The notes: generated by a model from the sequence alone, not told the origin. Counted from the stretch's first letter, positions 55,831 to 64,000 are shown. The stretch: 64,000 nt of DNA from an uncultured Clostridia bacterium (GCA_944412495.1 CALYBL010000017.1:87441-151440), one strand, 5' to 3'. Translations and numbers: made by a program.

Positions 55831-55859
55831 CTTTATTTTTTATGAAAGGAGCTGGATGT

Positions 55860-57503
55860 ATGTATCGCTTACCGGAAAAAACCGTATCAGCGGCAGGAAG
55901 CGGGTCACAGCATGCCAGCGCTTTTAAACGGACAAACAGCTTTTTAAAATGTCTTTCAGCATGCGGCAAAAGCGCCGCAGCTTTGGCGGCTCATGCGGCC
56001 GGCATCATAAAAAAGCCCTTTACCGCGTTTAAATCGCAGGTGTCAGATAATAAAAACAGAAAAGAGCACAGCTCAGAAAACATCTTTAAACGTATAATAT
56101 GCTTTGTAAAGCTTGCGGGCCGCAGCCTAAAAAGCAGGGACATGCGCAGGAAAAGTATCGCATATATAGCGCCGGTTCTTGCTCTGGCTGTTTTCGCAGG
56201 CTCTTTATATGCCTATAATTCAGGCAGCTACGCACTGGAGGTTACGTATAACGGCAGCGTTGTGGCATATGTTGAGGATGAAGCAATATTTAACAATGCA
56301 CTTCTTCAGATAGAATCGAATATAGCGGATGAGGAGGTTAAGGCTGCGGCCGACACCTCAGCATCCTTTAGGCTCGTGAAGGTGCCGGAGGAAAAGGTGT
56401 CGGGCAGCGACGATATAAGCGGAATTATATTAAGCACCTTCACTCCCGCACTGACGGAGGCTAACGGCCTCTTTATTGACGGCGAGCTTATCGCCGTGTC
56501 GGCCGATGCCGGTGAGATAAACACGGCGCTGAATGCAGTGCTCGATTCGTACAGGACGGACGGAACGGAGCAGGTTATGTTCAACAACAGCGTAAGCGTT
56601 GTTTCGGGGTACTACAGCTCGGATGACGTAAAGAGCGCGGAGGAGATAAGAACTATACTCAATACGCCGGTTGCATCACAGGAGATATATATAACGACTG
56701 CGGGCGAAACGCTGAGCAGCATAGCGCAGACGTCGTCCTGCGACATCGCGAGGATAACCGAGCTTAACGCCGGCATAGCCGAAACACCGCCTGAGGGCAG
56801 CAATGTGATAGTTGAGGTTGCGAGGCTGCCTTACAGTGTAAAGGTGATAAAGAGCAGCACCTATGAGCAGACAATTGCATATGAGACAGTTGAAACAGAG
56901 GACGACTCTCTTGCTGCCGGCACCCGGAAGGTAACGGTGGACGGTGCTGACGGTAAGCAGCTTATAACCGAGGAAATAGTCTTCATAGACGGCGCAGAGG
57001 TAAGCCGCAGCCAGGTAAGCGCGCAGGTTATAGCCGAGCCGGTGGCCGAGCAGATTGCGGTTGGCACTAAGGAGGTTGTCAGGGCGCAGTCACGTTCTCT
57101 TGCAGGAATATCCGTGCTGGGTGATATGGCGTATCCGATAGAAGTAGTAAACAGCATGTATATAAGCTCTTACTACGGCGATGACAGAGGACACAAGGGA
57201 TGGGATTTTGCCGCACCGGAGGGCACAAAAATATTCGCGGCGGCCGACGGTGTAGTTACGAAGGTAAACAGTGTAAGCAGTGCTTACGGACTGCATTTTG
57301 TTATTGACCACGGCAACGGTATAAGCACGCTTTATGCGCATTGCAGCTCGATAAATGTAACGGACGGGCAAACGGTAAGCTGCGGTGAGATAATAGCGGA
57401 GGTCGGCGATACAGGGCGTTCTACCGGCAATCATCTCCATTTCGAGATATTGGAAAATGGTACGGCCATAGACCCTGCACCTTATCTTGAAGCCATAAGG
57501 TAG
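55860..57503 (+). CDS. Peptidoglycan hydrolase with LysM, G5 and C-terminal M23 metallopeptidase domains
   Basis: ATG 55860 lies 8 nt after AAAGGAG. TM anchor, LysM (YITTAGETLSSIAQ..ITELN), G5 (TRKVTVDGADGKQ...IAVGTKE), M23 (HKGWDF..., GDTGRSTGNHLHFE). Confidence 0.85.
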   Translation: MYRLPEKTVSAAGSGSQHASAFKRTNSFLKCLSACGKSAAALAAHAAGIIKKPFTAFKSQVSDNKNRKEHSSENIFKRIICFVKLAGRSLKSRDMRRKSIAYIAPVLALAVFAGSLYAYNSGSYALEVTYNGSVVAYVEDEAIFNNALLQIESNIADEEVKAAADTSASFRLVKVPEEKVSGSDDISGIILSTFTPALTEANGLFIDGELIAVSADAGEINTALNAVLDSYRTDGTEQVMFNNSVSVVSGYYSSDDVKSAEEIRTILNTPVASQEIYITTAGETLSSIAQTSSCDIARITELNAGIAETPPEGSNVIVEVARLPYSVKVIKSSTYEQTIAYETVETEDDSLAAGTRKVTVDGADGKQLITEEIVFIDGAEVSRSQVSAQVIAEPVAEQIAVGTKEVVRAQSRSLAGISVLGDMAYPIEVVNSMYISSYYGDDRGHKGWDFAAPEGTKIFAAADGVVTKVNSVSSAYGLHFVIDHGNGISTLYAHCSSINVTDGQTVSCGEIIAEVGDTGRSTGNHLHFEILENGTAIDPAPYLEAIR

Positions 57504-57527
57504 AAAATTAAACAGATTCTAATTGCT

Positions 57528-57559
57528 GCGGCGGAAATTGTTTTTCTGCCGCTTTTTTT
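57528..57559 (+). terminator. Intrinsic terminator after M23 peptidase gene
   Basis: GCGGCGG...CTGCCGC (one G-U pair) followed by T7. Confidence 0.6.
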
Positions 57560-57773
57560 ATGGAGATACTATGTAAAAAATAAGTTTAGAGCAAAATGGG
57601 CAATTAGGACAGATAATAGTTTGAAAGACACTGAAATGAATATTAAGGAAATGATGCAGTCATATGTAAAAGGAGAAAAAATTAAAAATCATACTTAATA
57701 TAAGTATATAATACACACGGCCGGGGATACAAAACTTAGAATTTACTTAAAATAAGACTTGTGGGAGAATATT

Positions 57774-57959
57774 ATGGAAATCAAAAGCAAGCATTTAGGT
57801 ATAAAGATAGCCCCGGAGCTTCATTTTAAGCTGCACTACATTGCAAAATATGAGGGAAGATCAGCGAACGGCGAGATATTGTATCTCCTGAGAAATTATA
57901 TTTCTCAGTTTGAAAAAGAGCATGGCCCGATTGATGTATCATCGCTTTATGAGAAATAA
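57774..57959 (+). CDS. Ribbon-helix-helix (Arc/CopG-like) small DNA-binding protein
   Basis: 61 aa from ATG 57774 (GGGAGA RBS). The pattern HLGIKIAPELHFKLHYIAKYEGRSANGEILYLLRNYI fits beta-alpha-alpha. No partner toxin gene is visible. Confidence 0.55.
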   Translation: MEIKSKHLGIKIAPELHFKLHYIAKYEGRSANGEILYLLRNYISQFEKEHGPIDVSSLYEK

Positions 57960-58202
57960 TCAGAAGGAATAAAAAATCCACCGATTAATCGCGGCTGTTA
58001 AGCAATTATTGCTTTACGGCCTTATATAGGCACGGCCTAACAGCAATTTTGTGCTGCAGGTATCGCAGATAATTTCCGTTTTGCGCAAAAGAACAATTTA
58101 AAGAATATGCCTGAAAATGTAATACTTTTTTTACAAAAAAACTGCTGATTTAGAGGCTGAATTTTGCTATAATATAAATAGCAATAAAAAAGGCGGTCTA
58201 TT

Positions 58203-59105
58203 ATGAAGGCGATAAAAACAATAGCGGCTCTTTTGCTGGCAGTTCCGGTTATGCTTTTCAGCTTTACAGACGGTTACATATCCGAAAGGGCGGCGGCGTC
58301 AGTGTTCTCCCCGGATATAGCCGATATGGCTCAGCTGTGGACGCAGGCACAGGCGGCTAATGCTGTGCCTGAGCAGGAGACAGCAGAGCCTGAGCAGCCG
58401 GCCGAGCCGGAGTACTATCATCTCGACGTCGGCAGCAATCATGATTCGTGGGATTCGCTGCTTTCGATAAACAATGAGGTAATAGGCTGGATAAGCATAC
58501 CGGGCCTTATAGACGGCTATCCGGTAGTGCTAAGAAATGACCCGGAAACCGGGAACGAATATTATCTGCACAGGAGCCTCAGCGGCTCATACAGCGCAAA
58601 GGGCACTATATTCATGGATTTCCGATGCACGGTGGAGCCGGACAGCATGACGCAGAATATGACGCTTTACGGCCATCATCAGAGGAACGGAGAAATGTTC
58701 GGCAATCTGCGCCAGCTCAAAACATTGAGCGGAATAAAGCAATGGCCGATAATACAGTTTGATACTATATATGAGGAGTCAAATTACCTCATATTCGCCG
58801 TATTTATAACGAACACGCTTGAAAAGCACGGTGAGATATTCGACTATCGTCAGCCCGACTTTTCTTCTCAGGAGGAGTTTATGGAGTTTATAGAGCAGTG
58901 CCGGCTCCGCTCCTTTTACAATATGCCGGTCGACGTTCAGGAGGGCGACACGATAATCACGCTTTCCACATGCTCCTATGAATATGATGAGTTTCGTCTT
59001 GTTGTAATGGGACGCAAGCTTCGCGAGGGAGAGGAATCGACGGTACATATCAGCGAGATTACGGAAAATCCGAATATTTTATATCCCGATGTGTGGTACA
59101 GATAA
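58203..59105 (+). CDS. srtB: Class B sortase
   Basis: 300 aa. Signal/TM anchor, ..LYGHH.. and the catalytic ITLSTCSYE...R signature (TLxTC). Confidence 0.8.
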   Translation: MKAIKTIAALLLAVPVMLFSFTDGYISERAAASVFSPDIADMAQLWTQAQAANAVPEQETAEPEQPAEPEYYHLDVGSNHDSWDSLLSINNEVIGWISIPGLIDGYPVVLRNDPETGNEYYLHRSLSGSYSAKGTIFMDFRCTVEPDSMTQNMTLYGHHQRNGEMFGNLRQLKTLSGIKQWPIIQFDTIYEESNYLIFAVFITNTLEKHGEIFDYRQPDFSSQEEFMEFIEQCRLRSFYNMPVDVQEGDTIITLSTCSYEYDEFRLVVMGRKLREGEESTVHISEITENPNILYPDVWYR

Positions 59106-59335
59106 TATAAGAAATATCGGTTATATAAAACGGACGCCGCATTTGCTAACGCCATATAAGGCAGTAATTTGAAAACAACATTGAAATACAGCTTATGGGC
59201 GTTGCAAAGGCCAAAAGACAGCGTAGAAGGCAGAAATGCTTTTTATGCTGTCTTTCTTTATGTTCAAAAATGAAATCGCACATTCGTCAAACAAGACCTT
59301 CCTTGCTACAATGTGAGTGAAGGAGGTAAGCGGAT

Positions 59336-59521
59336 ATGCGAAATCAAAAACACTACATAGCGATTGATGAAAGTGAACGGAGAATTATTCTAAATGCTCT
59401 TAATGCGCTGCGGAACAATCTGCTGGCAGAAGGCAGATATACGGACGCAGTAGATGATGTTCTAATCAAAGTAGTCAACGCACCTGTCAAGAAATTCAAA
59501 ATCAGAATCACGGAGGTTTAA
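59336..59521 (+). CDS. Hypothetical small protein (61 aa), mobile-element associated
   Basis: RBS GAAGGAGG. Lies 4 nt upstream of the tnpV-like gene. Confidence 0.5.
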   Translation: MRNQKHYIAIDESERRIILNALNALRNNLLAEGRYTDAVDDVLIKVVNAPVKKFKIRITEV

Positions 59522-59525
59522 GGTT

Positions 59526-59900
59526 ATGAAAAAGACAATATTTGAACAGATGGGTGGCACATACGAACAACAGGGAGATTATCTTATCCCCTGTCTCGCC
59601 CTTCCTGCCAAAGACGTAGTGCCGATAGGATTGTGGGGGCAAAGACACCTTCAATACATTAAACAACATAGAAAAATATTTTATACTAATTTGATTACAA
59701 GTGGTGATTTATATAGCTATCTTGCTGATATTGACGAGTTAGCAAATAGCATCTATGAAAATATGGTACCGCTATATAAATCGTTATACCAAGTTACTGA
59801 AGAACTTAAAAAATCCAATCCTTTTGAATGGGTGCACAGAAACAACGACATTATAGATGTTATTAATGAAATTATATATAATGATGTGATATTCCGATAA
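59526..59900 (+). CDS. tnpV: Transposon-encoded TnpV-family protein
   Basis: MKKTIFEQMGGTYEQQGDYLIPCLALP...WGQRHLQYIKQH...LITSGDLYSYLADIDE closely follows the Tn4451-type TnpV pattern as I recall it. Confidence 0.7.
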   Translation: MKKTIFEQMGGTYEQQGDYLIPCLALPAKDVVPIGLWGQRHLQYIKQHRKIFYTNLITSGDLYSYLADIDELANSIYENMVPLYKSLYQVTEELKKSNPFEWVHRNNDIIDVINEIIYNDVIFR

Positions 59901-59907
59901 ACTAGTA

Positions 59908-59936
59908 AATGGCGAGGTGTTTCACCTCGCCATTTT
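59908..59936. terminator. Bidirectional terminator between tnpV and the six-gene operon
   Basis: AATGGCGAGGTG-loop-CACCTCGCCATT followed by TTTCG. A-rich on the other side. Confidence 0.7.
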
Positions 59937-59946
59937 CGCTTAATAA

Positions 59947-60441
59947 TTAGATTTTCGGAATCATACTCGCGGAATTAGGAGCATTGGCTTGCATATTCCA
60001 GATAGCTATTTTCATCTTTTTAATACGCTTACCATCACCAAAATCAAGCAAATCTTCCCTTTTATAAACATTCAAAAGTTTATTTAACGATCCCAAGTCC
60101 GCAGATGTCATTAAAAACGCTTCTTCCGGATCGATTAGTTTGCAGTATGCCCACAGTTGTCCTAAATCACGCAGAGTTAAACTTGTCTTTTTTGCTTCAA
60201 TAAAAAACAGTTTGAACTCATCTGCCTTCTTTACTATGCCGAGAACATCAATTTGAATATCTACACCGATAGCTTCTTCTTGAATGATACCGTACTTTCT
60301 AAGAACTCTATCCAATCGTTCGCTGTGTGAGTCAACTACGATTATTTCCTCAGCAGATTTGTATTTATCTTTCAGGTATGCTTTAAGCCATAGCTGCATT
60401 GGTGGGTATAAGTCAAATTCTCTCATATCTTTATTCTCCAT
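59947..60441 (-). CDS. Small PD-(D/E)xK-type nuclease-like protein (164 aa)
   Basis: Core ..AIGVDIQIDVLGIVKKADEFKLFFIEAKKTS.. (D-x17-E-x-K), similar to YraN/Hjc/NucS-type minimal nucleases. Overlaps the upstream gene by 11 nt. Confidence 0.5.
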   Translation of the reverse strand: MENKDMREFDLYPPMQLWLKAYLKDKYKSAEEIIVVDSHSERLDRVLRKYGIIQEEAIGVDIQIDVLGIVKKADEFKLFFIEAKKTSLTLRDLGQLWAYCKLIDPEEAFLMTSADLGSLNKLLNVYKREDLLDFGDGKRIKKMKIAIWNMQANAPNSASMIPKI

Positions 60442-61318
60442 ATCCTAAATCTTTGGCTATTTGCTTCCACGAATCATAGTGTTTGCCTCTTATCTCGGAT
60501 GGAATAAAGCCATCATTTTCGCTTGGGTGATGTGGTTTGTTTTTATTTCTTTCGCGGCCTTCCCAATAGAATTTGTGAGTTACTTCTTCAGGTTTTTTCC
60601 CCTCTGATTCAAGACCATCGATTAATTCGGTTGCAAACTGAGCAAGAGCTTCTCTTTTGTGCAGAACAGCAAATCCTATGGGCAAAAATTCATTCGCCCA
60701 TATTTTAATTTGATGTTCTTTTTTCCAAAAATCAGGCTTCCCTTCCTTGAATTTAACAAGATTGCCGTCACGCATATTGGGATGAGCCCAATCTATTGCC
60801 TGTACAGGAATATTAACATCTTTAAGTAAACGACAAACATCGCTAACCAAATACCAATTATGTGGCACTTCTAAGTAAACACGATGCATATAGTTTTTAA
60901 AAAAGTAGTTACTTCTGCGAATGTAACCCGTCACATCAGCAAATCCTTGCAAAAAAGATATCTTCTCATCACGAGTAAAGGAAAAAATTTCTTCATCAAT
61001 TCTAATATTTTCGTGGGATACCGCATTGCCGATATAACGTAAAATTTCTCGCATCATATATTCGTCATTTCTCTTAGTGAAAGAGATAATAGAATAATTA
61101 TCCTGCTGAGTAAAGCTCAATCCTGTGCCGATTAGAGGTTCTAATACTGTGCGAATATCGGTTATACTTGCACGTACATATATTCTAACATCGTTATTAT
61201 TTTCTGTTACCAGTTTTTTATGTGGAATTTCAACAGATATGGTGGTTTCTGATGCACCACGTCTCACTTCTCCATTGCCACAAATCATACCTAAAAGGTA
61301 AGACATCTCTAGATTCAT
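60431..61318 (-). CDS. Double LAGLIDADG-like-motif protein (295 aa), catalytic acids absent
   Basis: Motif 1 YLLGMICGNGEV and motif 2 FLQGFADVTGYI lie ~110 aa apart, as in monomeric LAGLIDADG enzymes. Position-8 residues are Asn and Thr. Confidence 0.5.
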   Translation of the reverse strand: MNLEMSYLLGMICGNGEVRRGASETTISVEIPHKKLVTENNNDVRIYVRASITDIRTVLEPLIGTGLSFTQQDNYSIISFTKRNDEYMMREILRYIGNAVSHENIRIDEEIFSFTRDEKISFLQGFADVTGYIRRSNYFFKNYMHRVYLEVPHNWYLVSDVCRLLKDVNIPVQAIDWAHPNMRDGNLVKFKEGKPDFWKKEHQIKIWANEFLPIGFAVLHKREALAQFATELIDGLESEGKKPEEVTHKFYWEGRERNKNKPHHPSENDGFIPSEIRGKHYDSWKQIAKDLGYGE

Positions 61319-61333
61319 ACAATCACAATCCTT

Positions 61334-61693
61334 TTAATTCAAGCCTATTCTATATCCATTGTTGAATAATTCCCGAATAATTCTATTATCATTAAGACGA
61401 TATAAATACTCGGCCTTATAAACTCTGTTTTTTCCAAATAAGTGTGCTATGTCAGCGGGTGGGGCAACAGGAACATAGAGCCTTAATTCCAGAGCCCATT
61501 TGTTAGCATCTTCTTGTAAAACAATTATTCCCTCGCTATATAATGTGATAGCAGGAGTATGAGTTTGATTATAATCGTTGATAAATTTGGCCATTGTTCC
61601 CGGTTTTGCTTCTGCTTCTATAAAGAAGTCTCCGCCATTCTGCTTAATATCATTTAAAAAGTCTAAAATTCTTTTTAGCATATGATCCTCCAT
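61334..61693 (-). CDS. Hypothetical protein (119 aa), distant paralogue of the 151-aa neighbour
   Basis: Start overlaps the upstream stop by 1 nt. Shares the C-terminal pattern LRLYV...YLYRLNDNRIIRELFNNGYRIG. Confidence 0.55.
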   Translation of the reverse strand: MEDHMLKRILDFLNDIKQNGGDFFIEAEAKPGTMAKFINDYNQTHTPAITLYSEGIIVLQEDANKWALELRLYVPVAPPADIAHLFGKNRVYKAEYLYRLNDNRIIRELFNNGYRIGLN

Positions 61694-62148
61694 TACAAAT
61701 TATATCCCCGATCAAAGTCTGTAAGATTTGCAGGATGTAAGCGTGAGACAATAGCTCGTATGGCTGCAACATTTTGATATTCCCCAAAATGGAAGCCATA
61801 ATCTCTAACAATTTTCTCTACAAACTTGCCTTTATTGATTCTTCTCACATAACTGGTGTTTCCCTCGCCTAAAAAAGGAAGAAGAACAGAAGGACAATTA
61901 TTTATATTGTTAAAATAAATACGAAGTTGATGGCTTCTTTTCATCGAATATCCACCTGTCGTTTCACCTTGAGTTATAGGGTAATATTCTTCATCAGGAA
62001 ATTCTCTTTCGAACATAAACGCTTTTTCTTCTGGAATCTGTGCTTCAATAAGCCCGATTCTTCCAGGGCTACATAAATACCCTAAAATCAAACAAAAGTC
62101 TGCGGTGTTAACCTCTATATCGAGAGCCCTGGATCCTAATAATGCCAT
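61693..62148 (-). CDS. Hypothetical protein (151 aa) with single LAGLIDADG-like motif
   Basis: FCLILGYLCSPGRI resembles motif 1 of the 295-aa protein. C-terminal LRIYF...YVRRINKGKFVEKIVRDYGFHFG. Confidence 0.55.
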   Translation of the reverse strand: MALLGSRALDIEVNTADFCLILGYLCSPGRIGLIEAQIPEEKAFMFEREFPDEEYYPITQGETTGGYSMKRSHQLRIYFNNINNCPSVLLPFLGEGNTSYVRRINKGKFVEKIVRDYGFHFGEYQNVAAIRAIVSRLHPANLTDFDRGYNL

Positions 62149-62153
62149 AACAT

Positions 62154-62927
62154 CTACTCCTTAACAAATATCAAAAGGTATTCATGAACCTTATTGATAC
62201 GGAATTTGTATGGATATCCAAGCGGCCGCATATTATTGTAATCTGCTTGTCTATCCCAAATAATTAGATCGTCGTAAATGAATCCAATTTTTTGTAATGC
62301 TGTAGCTAAATCGCTATGCAAAGGATAAAAATTGCTTTTTTTACGAATATCCATTACATTTACGATACAATAACCACCTTTTTTCAAAACTCTACTAACT
62401 GAAGCAAAAAGGTTTGATAATGTATTTATAAATTCACTATAATTTGCAATATTTCCCACATCGTTGGTCTTATCAGAGTAATTTACAGCATTCTTTTGGT
62501 CGGCACTTCGTTTCATATTGAGAATATCCCAATACGGTGGGGATGTAACACAAATATCGAAGTGATTTGCAGGAAGTGTTTTTAGCACCTCAAAACTATC
62601 ACCGTTAATTATCTGAATTTTATCATCTTTGCCCACACGTTGTTTTGCTATATTACAAAAATCCTCAGATAAATCGATTCCTACAGCTTCGCATCCAAGT
62701 TTTTGTGCAGCAACAGTTGTGGAACCAATACCATTAAAAGGATCTAATACACGCGAATTTGCTTTTGAAAAAGTGCGTATTAGTTTTTCGCACAACGAAA
62801 CCGGGTAGGATGCGGGATGCTTAAATTCTTTCTCTTCTTTTGTTTTCGATAAATCTCGCCAAATGCTAAAAGAATTTTGAAGCCACTCCTTGCCGGTGAG
62901 ATCATTGCATTTTTTAGAGTTGTCCAT
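62154..62927 (-). CDS. DNA methyltransferase (N6-adenine or N4-cytosine), SPPY type
   Basis: 257 aa. HPASYPVSLCEKLIRTFS..VLDPFNGIGSTTVAA (motifs X and I) comes before ICVTSPPYWD (motif IV). This order is reversed relative to the usual PF01555 layout. C-terminal ..IIWDR...HEYLLIFVK. Confidence 0.8.
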   Translation of the reverse strand: MDNSKKCNDLTGKEWLQNSFSIWRDLSKTKEEKEFKHPASYPVSLCEKLIRTFSKANSRVLDPFNGIGSTTVAAQKLGCEAVGIDLSEDFCNIAKQRVGKDDKIQIINGDSFEVLKTLPANHFDICVTSPPYWDILNMKRSADQKNAVNYSDKTNDVGNIANYSEFINTLSNLFASVSRVLKKGGYCIVNVMDIRKKSNFYPLHSDLATALQKIGFIYDDLIIWDRQADYNNMRPLGYPYKFRINKVHEYLLIFVKE

Positions 62928-64000
62928 TGGGTATCCACCTTTTTGATTGAATTCTTTTTACTTCACAATCAATATAATCGGATTCTTTTTTGTTAATACC
63001 GTATGCTTTGTACACTATCTGATTTAATTCCTCTAAACAGTCGAACCATTCTTGACTCATATAATCATTGCTTTCTAATCTGCTAACTAAACTGAGTATA
63101 GAATCAAAATATATTTCTTGTTGATTAGTTGACGGAAGTGGTATTTTTTTTAAGTATTTTGCATCTGTATGCATTGTAAGTTTGGAGTAATTATAACAGT
63201 ATTTGTACAAGAAAAGATTGCACAAGCGAGAATGAAGTATGCCTAATATGTAACGACACATTTTTTCGTCACCGTCCGTGAATACAGTAACTGTCTGCGT
63301 TGCTTCCATATTACCGCCAAAAGCAGCTATTATACCTGCTTCTGCACTATAAATATTTTGAATAAAAACCTTATTACCTGTTGTAGGCACAGTATGATTT
63401 TTATACCCAAATTTACGTATTTCTTTTCCTGCTATCGCATCTTTTGACACAGATTTTCCTCTACCAACATAACCATTACATAAATCAGATAAAGTTTGAT
63501 ATGAGGAAGTTAATTTTTTATAAGTCGAATAATCCTCTGAACAGTTAAAGATTAGAATTTCATCTTTGTAAAATGATTGAGGAATACTGCACATAGATAC
63601 AAAGCGGTTGCTTGACAATTTTTTTAATTTGATTTTATGCTTTCTATCTGCTGCACAATTTTTAACTGTAAGAATAATTTGCTCTCCTCGAACATTCTTG
63701 AAATAAGCGCCGATATCAATAATGGATATAATCGTTTTTTCTTCAAGAATAGTTCTTCGCAACAAGCTATATCCAGCTACGTGTAGAAAGTTTTTTGGAA
63801 TTATGTAAGATACAATACCATCGGTTTTTACAATCTCAAAAGCTCGAATTAATGCTGCCACAAACAGATTGTTGCCAAAATCAGATACTCTACGTCTGAA
63901 AAGATAATCACAGTTTAATTCAATATCACCCAACAAAGGAACATAAGGGGGATTACCTATAACAACATCCGGTTGATCAGCTAATTCAAATTCACTCAAT
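62914..64000 (-). CDS. N6-adenine DNA methyltransferase (Eco57I/TaqI-like gamma type) with C-terminal specificity domain; N-terminus outside window
   Basis: VVIGNPPYVPL (motif IV) lies near the window edge, followed by ~330 aa of a TaqI-like target-recognition region. Overlaps the next gene by 14 nt. Confidence 0.75.
   Translation of the reverse strand, partial: LSEFELADQPDVVIGNPPYVPLLGDIELNCDYLFRRRVSDFGNNLFVAALIRAFEIVKTDGIVSYIIPKNFLHVAGYSLLRRTILEEKTIISIIDIGAYFKNVRGEQIILTVKNCAADRKHKIKLKKLSSNRFVSMCSIPQSFYKDEILIFNCSEDYSTYKKLTSSYQTLSDLCNGYVGRGKSVSKDAIAGKEIRKFGYKNHTVPTTGNKVFIQNIYSAEAGIIAAFGGNMEATQTVTVFTDGDEKMCRYILGILHSRLCNLFLYKYCYNYSKLTMHTDAKYLKKIPLPSTNQQEIYFDSILSLVSRLESNDYMSQEWFDCLEELNQIVYKAYGINKKESDYIDCEVKRIQSKRWIPNGQL

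Follow-up and report, generated by a model that had tools for sequence, protein, structure and literature searches.

Restriction endonucleases share the PD-(D/E)xK, HNH and GIY-YIG folds with homing endonucleases, and the only host relatives of the LAGLIDADG type named in a review of these enzymes are regulators, maturases and HO (PMC3384342). Here we describe an operon at the right-hand end of a 64,000-nucleotide stretch of DNA from an uncultured Clostridia bacterium (CALYBL010000017.1:87441-151440; hereafter the window, to which coordinates without a locus prefix refer), which encodes two DNA methyltransferases (M1 and M2), two small accessory proteins (g3, 151 amino acids (aa), and g4, 119 aa), a 295-aa protein modelled with a LAGLIDADG fold (g5) and a 164-aa nuclease candidate of the PD-(D/E)xK type (g6). 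We consider it probable that these genes constitute a Type II (IIS/IIT-like) restriction-modification (R-M) system with an endonuclease composed of g5 as the reader and g6 as the cutter of DNA; the operon lies within an integrative mobilizable element of ~11.6 kb. It would be an R-M system of a known general kind, widespread and mobile, with a previously undescribed endonuclease architecture.

The closest functional analogues of the g5-g6 system are BtsI and BsrDI, heterodimeric Type IIS (IIT) enzymes that are accompanied by two amino-methyltransferases and act on asymmetric sites; BtsI comprises a large subunit of 328 aa and a small subunit of 164 aa with D65/E78/K80 (PMC1950550). Both systems thus combine two amino-methyltransferases with an endonuclease split into subunits of ~300 and ~164 aa, and the site of the small subunit, BtsI A, occupies nearly the same positions as that of g6 (D65/E82/K84). 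However, the large subunit BtsI B starts with a PD58-E72-Q85R86 catalytic site, while g5 contains no such motif and exhibits a LAGLIDADG fold, and the structure of BsmI, a relative of BtsI, has been described as an EcoRI-like domain, a novel central domain and a FokI-like domain. Profile searches with g5 and with g6 did not retrieve BsmI, and it was absent from the top 50 Foldseek matches of both. Membership of g5-g6 in the BtsI/BsrDI family was considered and rejected: despite the parallel sizes and motif positions, neither the fold of g5 nor the description of the BsmI structure supports it, the comparison with BtsI and BsrDI themselves being one with their published descriptions.

Another parallel is provided by engineered enzymes, in which inactive I-SceI has been joined to the nuclease domain of FokI or PvuII (PMC2685105, PMC3258161). 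In these constructs a dead LAGLIDADG protein targets the DNA and a PD-(D/E)xK domain cuts it, a layout that recurs in natural g5-g6 fusions of 541-557 aa (see below). On the other hand, the engineered fusions are laboratory constructs with targets of 18 bp, while g5-g6 is a natural, widespread family protected by methyltransferases; since these are ordinary methyltransferases, the target site of g5-g6 is expected to be short. The preliminary description of the locus, made from the sequence alone, knew of no characterised R-M or defence system combining a LAGLIDADG binder with a separate PD-(D/E)xK nuclease, and we likewise encountered none in the libraries, the PDB and the literature searched: the literature on a LAGLIDADG restriction enzyme or defence system yielded only engineered fusions and reviews that name no such restriction enzyme, with REBASE outside the scope of the search.

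Fold and conserved residues of g5 and g6

The g5 gene (60431-61318, minus strand) encodes a protein whose AlphaFold2 model (predicted local distance difference test score, pLDDT, 89; predicted template modelling score, pTM, 0.89) exhibits the alpha-beta-beta-alpha-beta-beta-alpha topology twice, and two helices of the LAGLIDADG type line the interface of the domains. In a Foldseek comparison of this model with the PDB, the top 50 matches were all LAGLIDADG proteins, including I-AniI, I-DmoI, the bI3 maturase, PI-PfuI, PI-SceI and the N-terminal domain of WhiA (E 5e-6 to 5e-4, probability 1.0), and WhiA and maturase structures (3hyj, 2ab5) were among them. The two LAGLIDADG-like helices read in the 295-aa protein from its sequence alone are therefore borne out by the model. 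The two-domain fold and the pair of interface helices are common to g5 and to I-AniI, I-DmoI and PI-PfuI. In structure g5 is closest to WhiA and the bI3 maturase, two LAGLIDADG proteins that have been domesticated; WhiA and the maturases likewise lack the catalytic acids.

The interface helices of g5 end in G-N15-G and D-V-T130-G, so that the positions of the metal-binding acids are occupied by Asn and Thr. Searched with a profile, 1.8 billion cluster representatives yielded 312 relatives of g5, of which 67 full-length sequences sharing <50% identity were used for residue counts. The equivalent of position 15 is R, N, K, G or S, and that of position 130 is A, C, T, G, S, I or N; the acidic metal-binding residue that ends each LAGLIDADG helix was sought in g5 and in all 67 relatives and was found in none, neither position being ever D or E. 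As both acid positions are lost, the criterion that has been used for WhiA, the g5 scaffold is predicted to be unable to cleave DNA in the canonical manner. It differs from LAGLIDADG homing endonucleases and from WhiA in several further respects: there is no intron or intein and no helix-turn-helix (HTH) tail, a long conserved insertion (HPN...KEHQ) is present, and g5 invariably has a PD-(D/E)xK nuclease as its partner, either separate or in the same chain, beside DNA methyltransferases. An intron, intein or free-standing homing setting was found in none of the loci, in all of which g5 is a member of an operon, between methyltransferase and nuclease genes. There are 1684 homologues of g5, the best 120 of which are nearly all 287-320 aa long, and from this number and constancy of length we conclude that g5 is a genuine gene.

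Despite the loss of the acids, g5 contains a set of nearly invariant residues, namely D128, R146, H179-P180-N181, (K/R)200-E201-H202-Q203 and K205, each retained in 58-67 of the 67 relatives and encoded at ~60704-60937 on the minus strand. In the model most of them (HPN...KEHQ) map to a long insertion of the beta3'-beta4' hairpin in the second LAGLIDADG domain, in which no known nuclease motif was recognised. The residues of this set could serve in docking of the nuclease, form a non-canonical active site or make contacts with the DNA backbone.

The last gene of the operon, g6 (59947-60441, minus strand), has been described beforehand as carrying a D-x17-E-x-K core. The core is real, and is invariant in an alignment of 46 homologues, but its spacing is D-x16-E-x-K, and it is part of a longer invariant signature, D65/E82-x-K84/Q95xxxY99, in which D...ExK...QxxxY is the pattern of RecB/Cas4-type PD-(D/E)xK nucleases. 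In the best AlphaFold2 model (pLDDT 87) D65 lies directly before the strand 66-72, and E82 and K84 are located on the strand 75-84. The best Foldseek matches of this model were AF1548, BamHI, PaqCI, MspJI, Hjc, Cap4, EcoT38I and NucS, and the top four, as well as most of the top 20, are PD-(D/E)xK nucleases. The motif and the model support the assignment of g6 as a PD-(D/E)xK nuclease, for which DNA cleavage is predicted. Among 2594 homologues, the 120 listed range from ~144 to 177 aa, mostly 158-165. The second ATG of g6, at 60426, has a GGAGAA 9 nucleotides (nt) before it, and a length of 158-159 aa prevails among the homologues, which makes 60426 the more likely start and 159 aa the probable length of the protein.

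It had been considered that the four proteins encoded downstream of the methyltransferases might turn out to belong to an already described R-M or defence family, but database searches gave no indication of this. Neither g3, g4 nor g5 matched any family in Pfam, NCBIfam, PADLOC (PADLOC-DB 2.0 defence models) or PHROGs; for g6 the same libraries provided no family assignment, the sole PADLOC match being Cas4 (E 0.024), which together with YhcG PDDEXK makes up its weak profile matches. In the PDB, g3 and g4 had no matches, and sequence and profile searches with g5 and with g6 returned nothing significant.

Linkage to methyltransferases and fused forms

A scan of one genome per species identified 80 loci, 79 of them non-redundant, in many phyla, including Clostridia, Bacteroidales, Spirochaetia, Endomicrobia, Desulfovibrionaceae, Campylobacter, Alphaproteobacteria and Anaerolineae. 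The g6 gene is located directly downstream of g5 in 80/80 loci, mostly with a gap of -11 to +7 nt. Far from occurring mostly without methyltransferases, a possibility that had been raised for this block, the g5-g6 pair has them as neighbours in 78 of the 79 non-redundant loci when all adjacent open reading frames (ORFs) are clustered, and in the single remaining one the sequence ends 52 nt upstream of g5. These enzymes come in four sets that replace one another: a gamma-class N6-adenine enzyme is combined with a beta-class enzyme in 44 loci and with a C5 enzyme in 15, an EcoRI-like N6-adenine enzyme is combined with a C5 enzyme in 13, and the latter two activities are fused in a single protein in four. 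Two methyltransferase activities are found in 76 of the 78 methyltransferase-bearing loci, which suggests an asymmetric site. An endonuclease that keeps its sequence while the methyltransferases protecting it are swapped is a signature of R-M systems.

What had been taken for a functional block of four genes shrinks, in this comparison, to a core of two (295 and 164 aa). The genes g3 and g4 are missing from 18/79 loci, and M2 directly abuts g5 in ~10 loci; where present, g3/g4 homologues occur in one or two copies per locus, placed before g5 or after g6. This variation of copy number (zero to two) and of position identifies them as optional accessories.

The g5 and g6 sequences also occur in a single chain. 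Three natural fusions (P0370, P0374 and P0382) of the length given above have a g5-like N-terminus and a g6-like C-terminus, the latter showing 34% identity to g6 (E 5e-20) and keeping D...E-S-K and GQLxxYC. Such fusions provide Rosetta-stone evidence for g5 and g6 working as a single machine. Next to each of the three there is a further g6 paralog, encoded on its own, and an N6_N4 methyltransferase; one fusion locus (L094) also has an N6_Mtase/Eco57I/TaqI_C enzyme, i.e. the same methyltransferase pair as the window, and the other two fusion contigs end in an unannotated partial gene. As each fused relative thus has one g6-type domain within the fusion and another in a separate protein, g6 of the split system probably acts as two copies.

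A further arrangement is found in proteins of 990-1300 aa, in which the g5-like domain is C-terminal and follows ~700-1100 residues without a Pfam match. Examples are P0389 and P0413 (L092:1211-4186 and L095:306-4205), and P0390, P0394 and P0456 are of the same kind; at L092 and L095, the two loci examined, the long form is followed by an N6_N4 methyltransferase. These proteins may represent yet another form of this enzyme class, the third, made as a single chain.

Proposed mechanism and alternative explanations

The idea at the centre of the preliminary description, a module composed of methyltransferases, a LAGLIDADG-fold binder and a small PD-(D/E)xK nuclease, is upheld by the g5 model, the g6 motif and the linkage to methyltransferases in 78/79 loci. 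At the sequence level the features of a Type II R-M system appear to be in place, i.e. adjacent and co-oriented methyltransferases kept across genomes and a nuclease motif in g6. In the mechanism that we propose, a small HTH protein encoded upstream of M1 (see below) and the methyltransferases-first order of genes would, once the element has entered a cell, let both strands be methylated before the endonuclease accumulates; the recognition site would be asymmetric, with M1 protecting one of its strands and M2 the other. The g5 protein would be a monomeric, pseudo-dimeric LAGLIDADG scaffold that no longer cleaves and reads the site with its beta-sheet saddle. The g6 protein would dock on g5 and hydrolyse DNA through D65, E82 and K84, and two copies of it would probably be engaged to cut both strands.

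Extending this reading beyond the locus, we are inclined, with less assurance than in the case of the R-M assignment itself, to regard g5-g6 as the first natural restriction-endonuclease family on the LAGLIDADG fold, which among the major folds of homing endonucleases is the only one still unreported from restriction enzymes, and in which a dead scaffold reads DNA for a detachable PD-(D/E)xK nuclease, in split, fused and giant (1000-1300 aa) forms that have spread across phyla via mobile elements, plasmids and phages, and in which the HPN/KEHQ residues are perhaps a new catalytic or coupling centre. If this is true, the family closes a gap in the list of folds shared by restriction and homing enzymes (PMC3384342), illustrates how a selfish homing enzyme can become a defence enzyme in nature, and provides a natural counterpart of the engineered fusions between an inactive meganuclease and a nuclease domain. 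The split and fused forms could also yield new asymmetric cutters or strand-specific nickases.

Several points weigh against the proposal of a g5 reader and a g6 cutter. Only one of the five g6 models is confident, the other four being poorer, and the Foldseek E-values of g6 are weak, the best being 4.8e-3. With just one nuclease gene in the split system, double-strand cutting needs an assumed g6 dimer. The g5 invariants D128, R146, HPN, KEHQ and K205 are not accounted for by a dead scaffold, nor are the roles of g3 and g4 by a model comprising g5 and g6. Finally, DNA binding by g5, cleavage by g6, the stoichiometry of the complex and the existence of a matching methylated motif are all predictions.

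A rival explanation is that g5 is an active nickase with a non-canonical site (D128, R146, H179-P-N181, E201-H202-Q203, K205) and that g6 cuts the other strand. The conservation of these residues among relatives of <50% identity exceeds what is expected of residues that determine DNA specificity, the split system possesses just one PD-(D/E)xK gene, and in BtsI, BsrDI and BspD6I it is the large subunit that recognises the site and nicks one strand, leaving the other to the small subunit. However, the canonical LAGLIDADG metal-binding acids are gone in every relative examined, the conserved residues reside in a hairpin insertion without a recognisable nuclease motif, and the fused systems, with two PD-(D/E)xK domains, already possess one active site per strand. 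We therefore regard a nicking g5 as unlikely, though it is the strongest competitor of a non-cleaving g5 that guides g6.

Regulators (WhiA) and RNA maturases built on dead LAGLIDADG scaffolds are known, and the presence of 3hyj and 2ab5 among the structural matches of g5 would agree with a WhiA-like factor of transcription or maintenance, encoded next to an unrelated repair or recombination nuclease, g6, for instance in a methylation-linked addiction or mobility module with no role in defence. This explanation is quite improbable, given the strict co-transcription with four unrelated types of methyltransferases, which points to dependence on DNA methylation as such, the invariant nuclease motif of g6 and the g5-g6 fusions, which imply one machine, and a 6.5-kb plasmid (see below) on which the cassette is the sole cargo besides replication genes and a toxin-antitoxin pair. 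Methyltransferase genes often have an inactivated restriction gene beside them, and the ORFs from g3 to g6 abut tightly, but the notion that they are pieces of one decayed restriction gene broken by frameshifts or stops (their lengths sum to 729 aa) has practically nothing left to recommend it and was rejected, as homologues of g3, g5 and g6 stand alone with constant lengths, the order and presence of the genes vary independently between loci, and g5 folds as a complete two-domain protein.

Operon layout, accessory genes and mobile carriers

All six ORFs of the minus strand between 59947 and 64000 were found where the preliminary description had placed them, as were their five junctions, which from M1 to g6 measure -14, +5, -1, +15 and -11 nt according to the ORF coordinates; the last of these, the g5/g6 overlap, turns into a short gap if g6 starts at 60426. 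The first two genes, which overlap by 14 nt, encode DNA methyltransferases, as had been supposed. M1 (62914-64000, minus strand) is a gamma-class N6-adenine enzyme with a TaqI_C-type specificity domain, which matches Eco57I (PF07669, 4.6e-14), TaqI_C (3.4e-4) and N6_Mtase in Pfam and MTase_II in PADLOC (1.4e-20). M2 (62154-62927, minus strand) is a 257-aa beta-class N4-cytosine/N6-adenine enzyme with an SPPY motif, which matches N6_N4_Mtase in Pfam (PF01555, 3.1e-35) and MTase_II in PADLOC (1.6e-46).

M1 runs off the edge of the window, which includes its C-terminal 361 of 470 aa, and the suspicion that the operon is truncated there and continues upstream proved to be justified. In exact copies of the element (L001-L010) M1 is complete, with 109 further codons, and upstream of it lies a 68-aa HTH_26 gene, which has a good promoter of the sigma-70 type. 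The full operon therefore comprises seven genes: the HTH_26 regulator, M1, M2, g3, g4, g5 and g6. The HTH_26 protein is probably the controller of operon expression. In three loci from Endomicrobia and Elusimicrobia (L071:3651-4283, L076:5159-5842 and L085:4206-4826) a ~210-aa domain similar to the S subunit of Type I systems (Methylase_S) is encoded before M1, which hints that the gamma-class methyltransferase of these loci draws its specificity from a separate subunit. A literature search for a published methylome of Acutalibacter muris retrieved nothing useful.

The accessory genes g3 (61693-62148, minus strand; the 'c3' family) and g4 (61334-61693, minus strand; usually called as a protein of 115 aa rather than 119 aa elsewhere) encode paralogs, as indicated by hhalign comparison of their families (probability 97.8%, E 1.3e-12). 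The g3 homologues form 85 clusters, nearly all of 151 aa. Three degenerate LAGLIDADG-like proteins had originally been counted in this operon. For g5 this stands, on the basis of its model and Foldseek matches; a LAGLIDADG helix in g3 is weakly suggested by sequence comparison; and g4, a paralog of g3, is not an independent third type. The segment of g3 FCLILGYLCSPGR...IEAQIPEEK aligns with the first helix and strand of g5 (hhalign P 0.02), and against a broader profile of the g5 N-terminal domain g3 reaches P 4e-4 (probability 35%), with reversed controls at P ~0.2. However, the two LAGLIDADG domains of g5, which are supported structurally, miss each other in hhalign (P 0.15), so that sequence methods are uninformative on the LAGLIDADG ancestry of g3.

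A g3-like N-terminus is also found in a ~346-aa protein (cluster c6) with a C-terminal NOV_C/DUF3883 (PD-(D/E)xK-like) domain, encoded in 13 loci (e.g. L040:2837-3877, L041:3751-4776 and 11 more), where it fills the position of g3/g4 in the presence of C5 methyltransferases. As the same domain is fused to a nuclease domain in these loci, g3 and g4 may act as adaptors or modulators that are dispensable for the core reaction.

Other genes accompany g5-g6 less regularly. An SfsA-like protein (an OB domain and a restriction-endonuclease-like domain) is encoded near the pair in 11 loci, on either side and in unrelated hosts, with 30-40% identity (L001:5932-6606, just past the end of the window, L020, L036, L051, L077, L087 and L088 are examples), which suggests another loosely associated accessory. 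A ~310-aa HARE-HTH protein (cluster c11) is encoded directly downstream of g6 in eight loci (e.g. L012:9384-10301, L045 and L057), and a ~121-aa protein without a family match (cluster c12) occurs in eight (e.g. L041:805-1179, L077 and L088).

Downstream of g6 a hairpin with a 13-bp stem, detected by a terminator scan and visible in the sequence at 59907-59935, agrees with the terminator postulated at the end of the operon. It lies between the convergent genes g6 and tnpV and is likely to be their shared terminator, its T-run on the minus strand being weak. The neighbouring gene is indeed tnpV (59526-59900, plus strand; TnpV, PF14198, 6.4e-36), and the island around it is AT-rich, as had been noted, with a GC content of 0.33-0.36, compared to 0.45-0.57 in the greater part of the sequence before ~57000 and ~0.38-0.46 directly before the island. 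Together with a 61-aa ORF (59336-59521, plus strand), tnpV makes up the left end of the mobile element (59140-59900). In comparisons with 12 copies that are inserted elsewhere, nucleotide identity breaks off at 59104-59142, which places the boundary of the element there. To the left of it, at 55842-59105, are host genes for an M23 peptidase with a G5 domain (553 aa) and a sortase-domain protein (300 aa), so that the element is inserted beside cell-wall genes.

The operon is carried by an integrative mobilizable element, in keeping with its initial designation as mobile-element cargo: the same ~11.6-kb sequence is present in ten loci (L001-L010), identical in sequence and with different flanks, and encodes a serine recombinase, a 92-aa ORF, a ParB_N protein, a relaxase, a NikA-like protein, the SfsA-like protein, the operon, TnpV and the 61-aa ORF. 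One of the copies (L005) seems to be a deletion derivative of this element: it lacks the ParB_N gene, and its relaxase and serine recombinase are annotated as one 721-aa fusion (L005:2815-4980). A g5 protein of exactly the same sequence is listed in 720 blocks of the assembly collection; since the exact element is so common in gut Clostridia, it probably shapes their gene flow and genetic tractability. The copy in Merdimmobilis hominis An559 has a g5 protein that is 100% identical, with ~99.7% identity at the nucleotide level.

Beyond this element, two phage genomes carry a methyltransferase, g5 and g6. A minimal natural carrier is plasmid p9 of Lactiplantibacillus plantarum (L096, NZ_CP060181.1, 6495 bp), which encodes rep, DUF536, a 700-aa fused methyltransferase annotated as dcm, homologues of g5 and g6 and a YafQ-type toxin-antitoxin pair, and which represents a convenient experimental entry point. 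In the plasmid and phage records g5 and g6 are annotated as 'hypothetical protein'.

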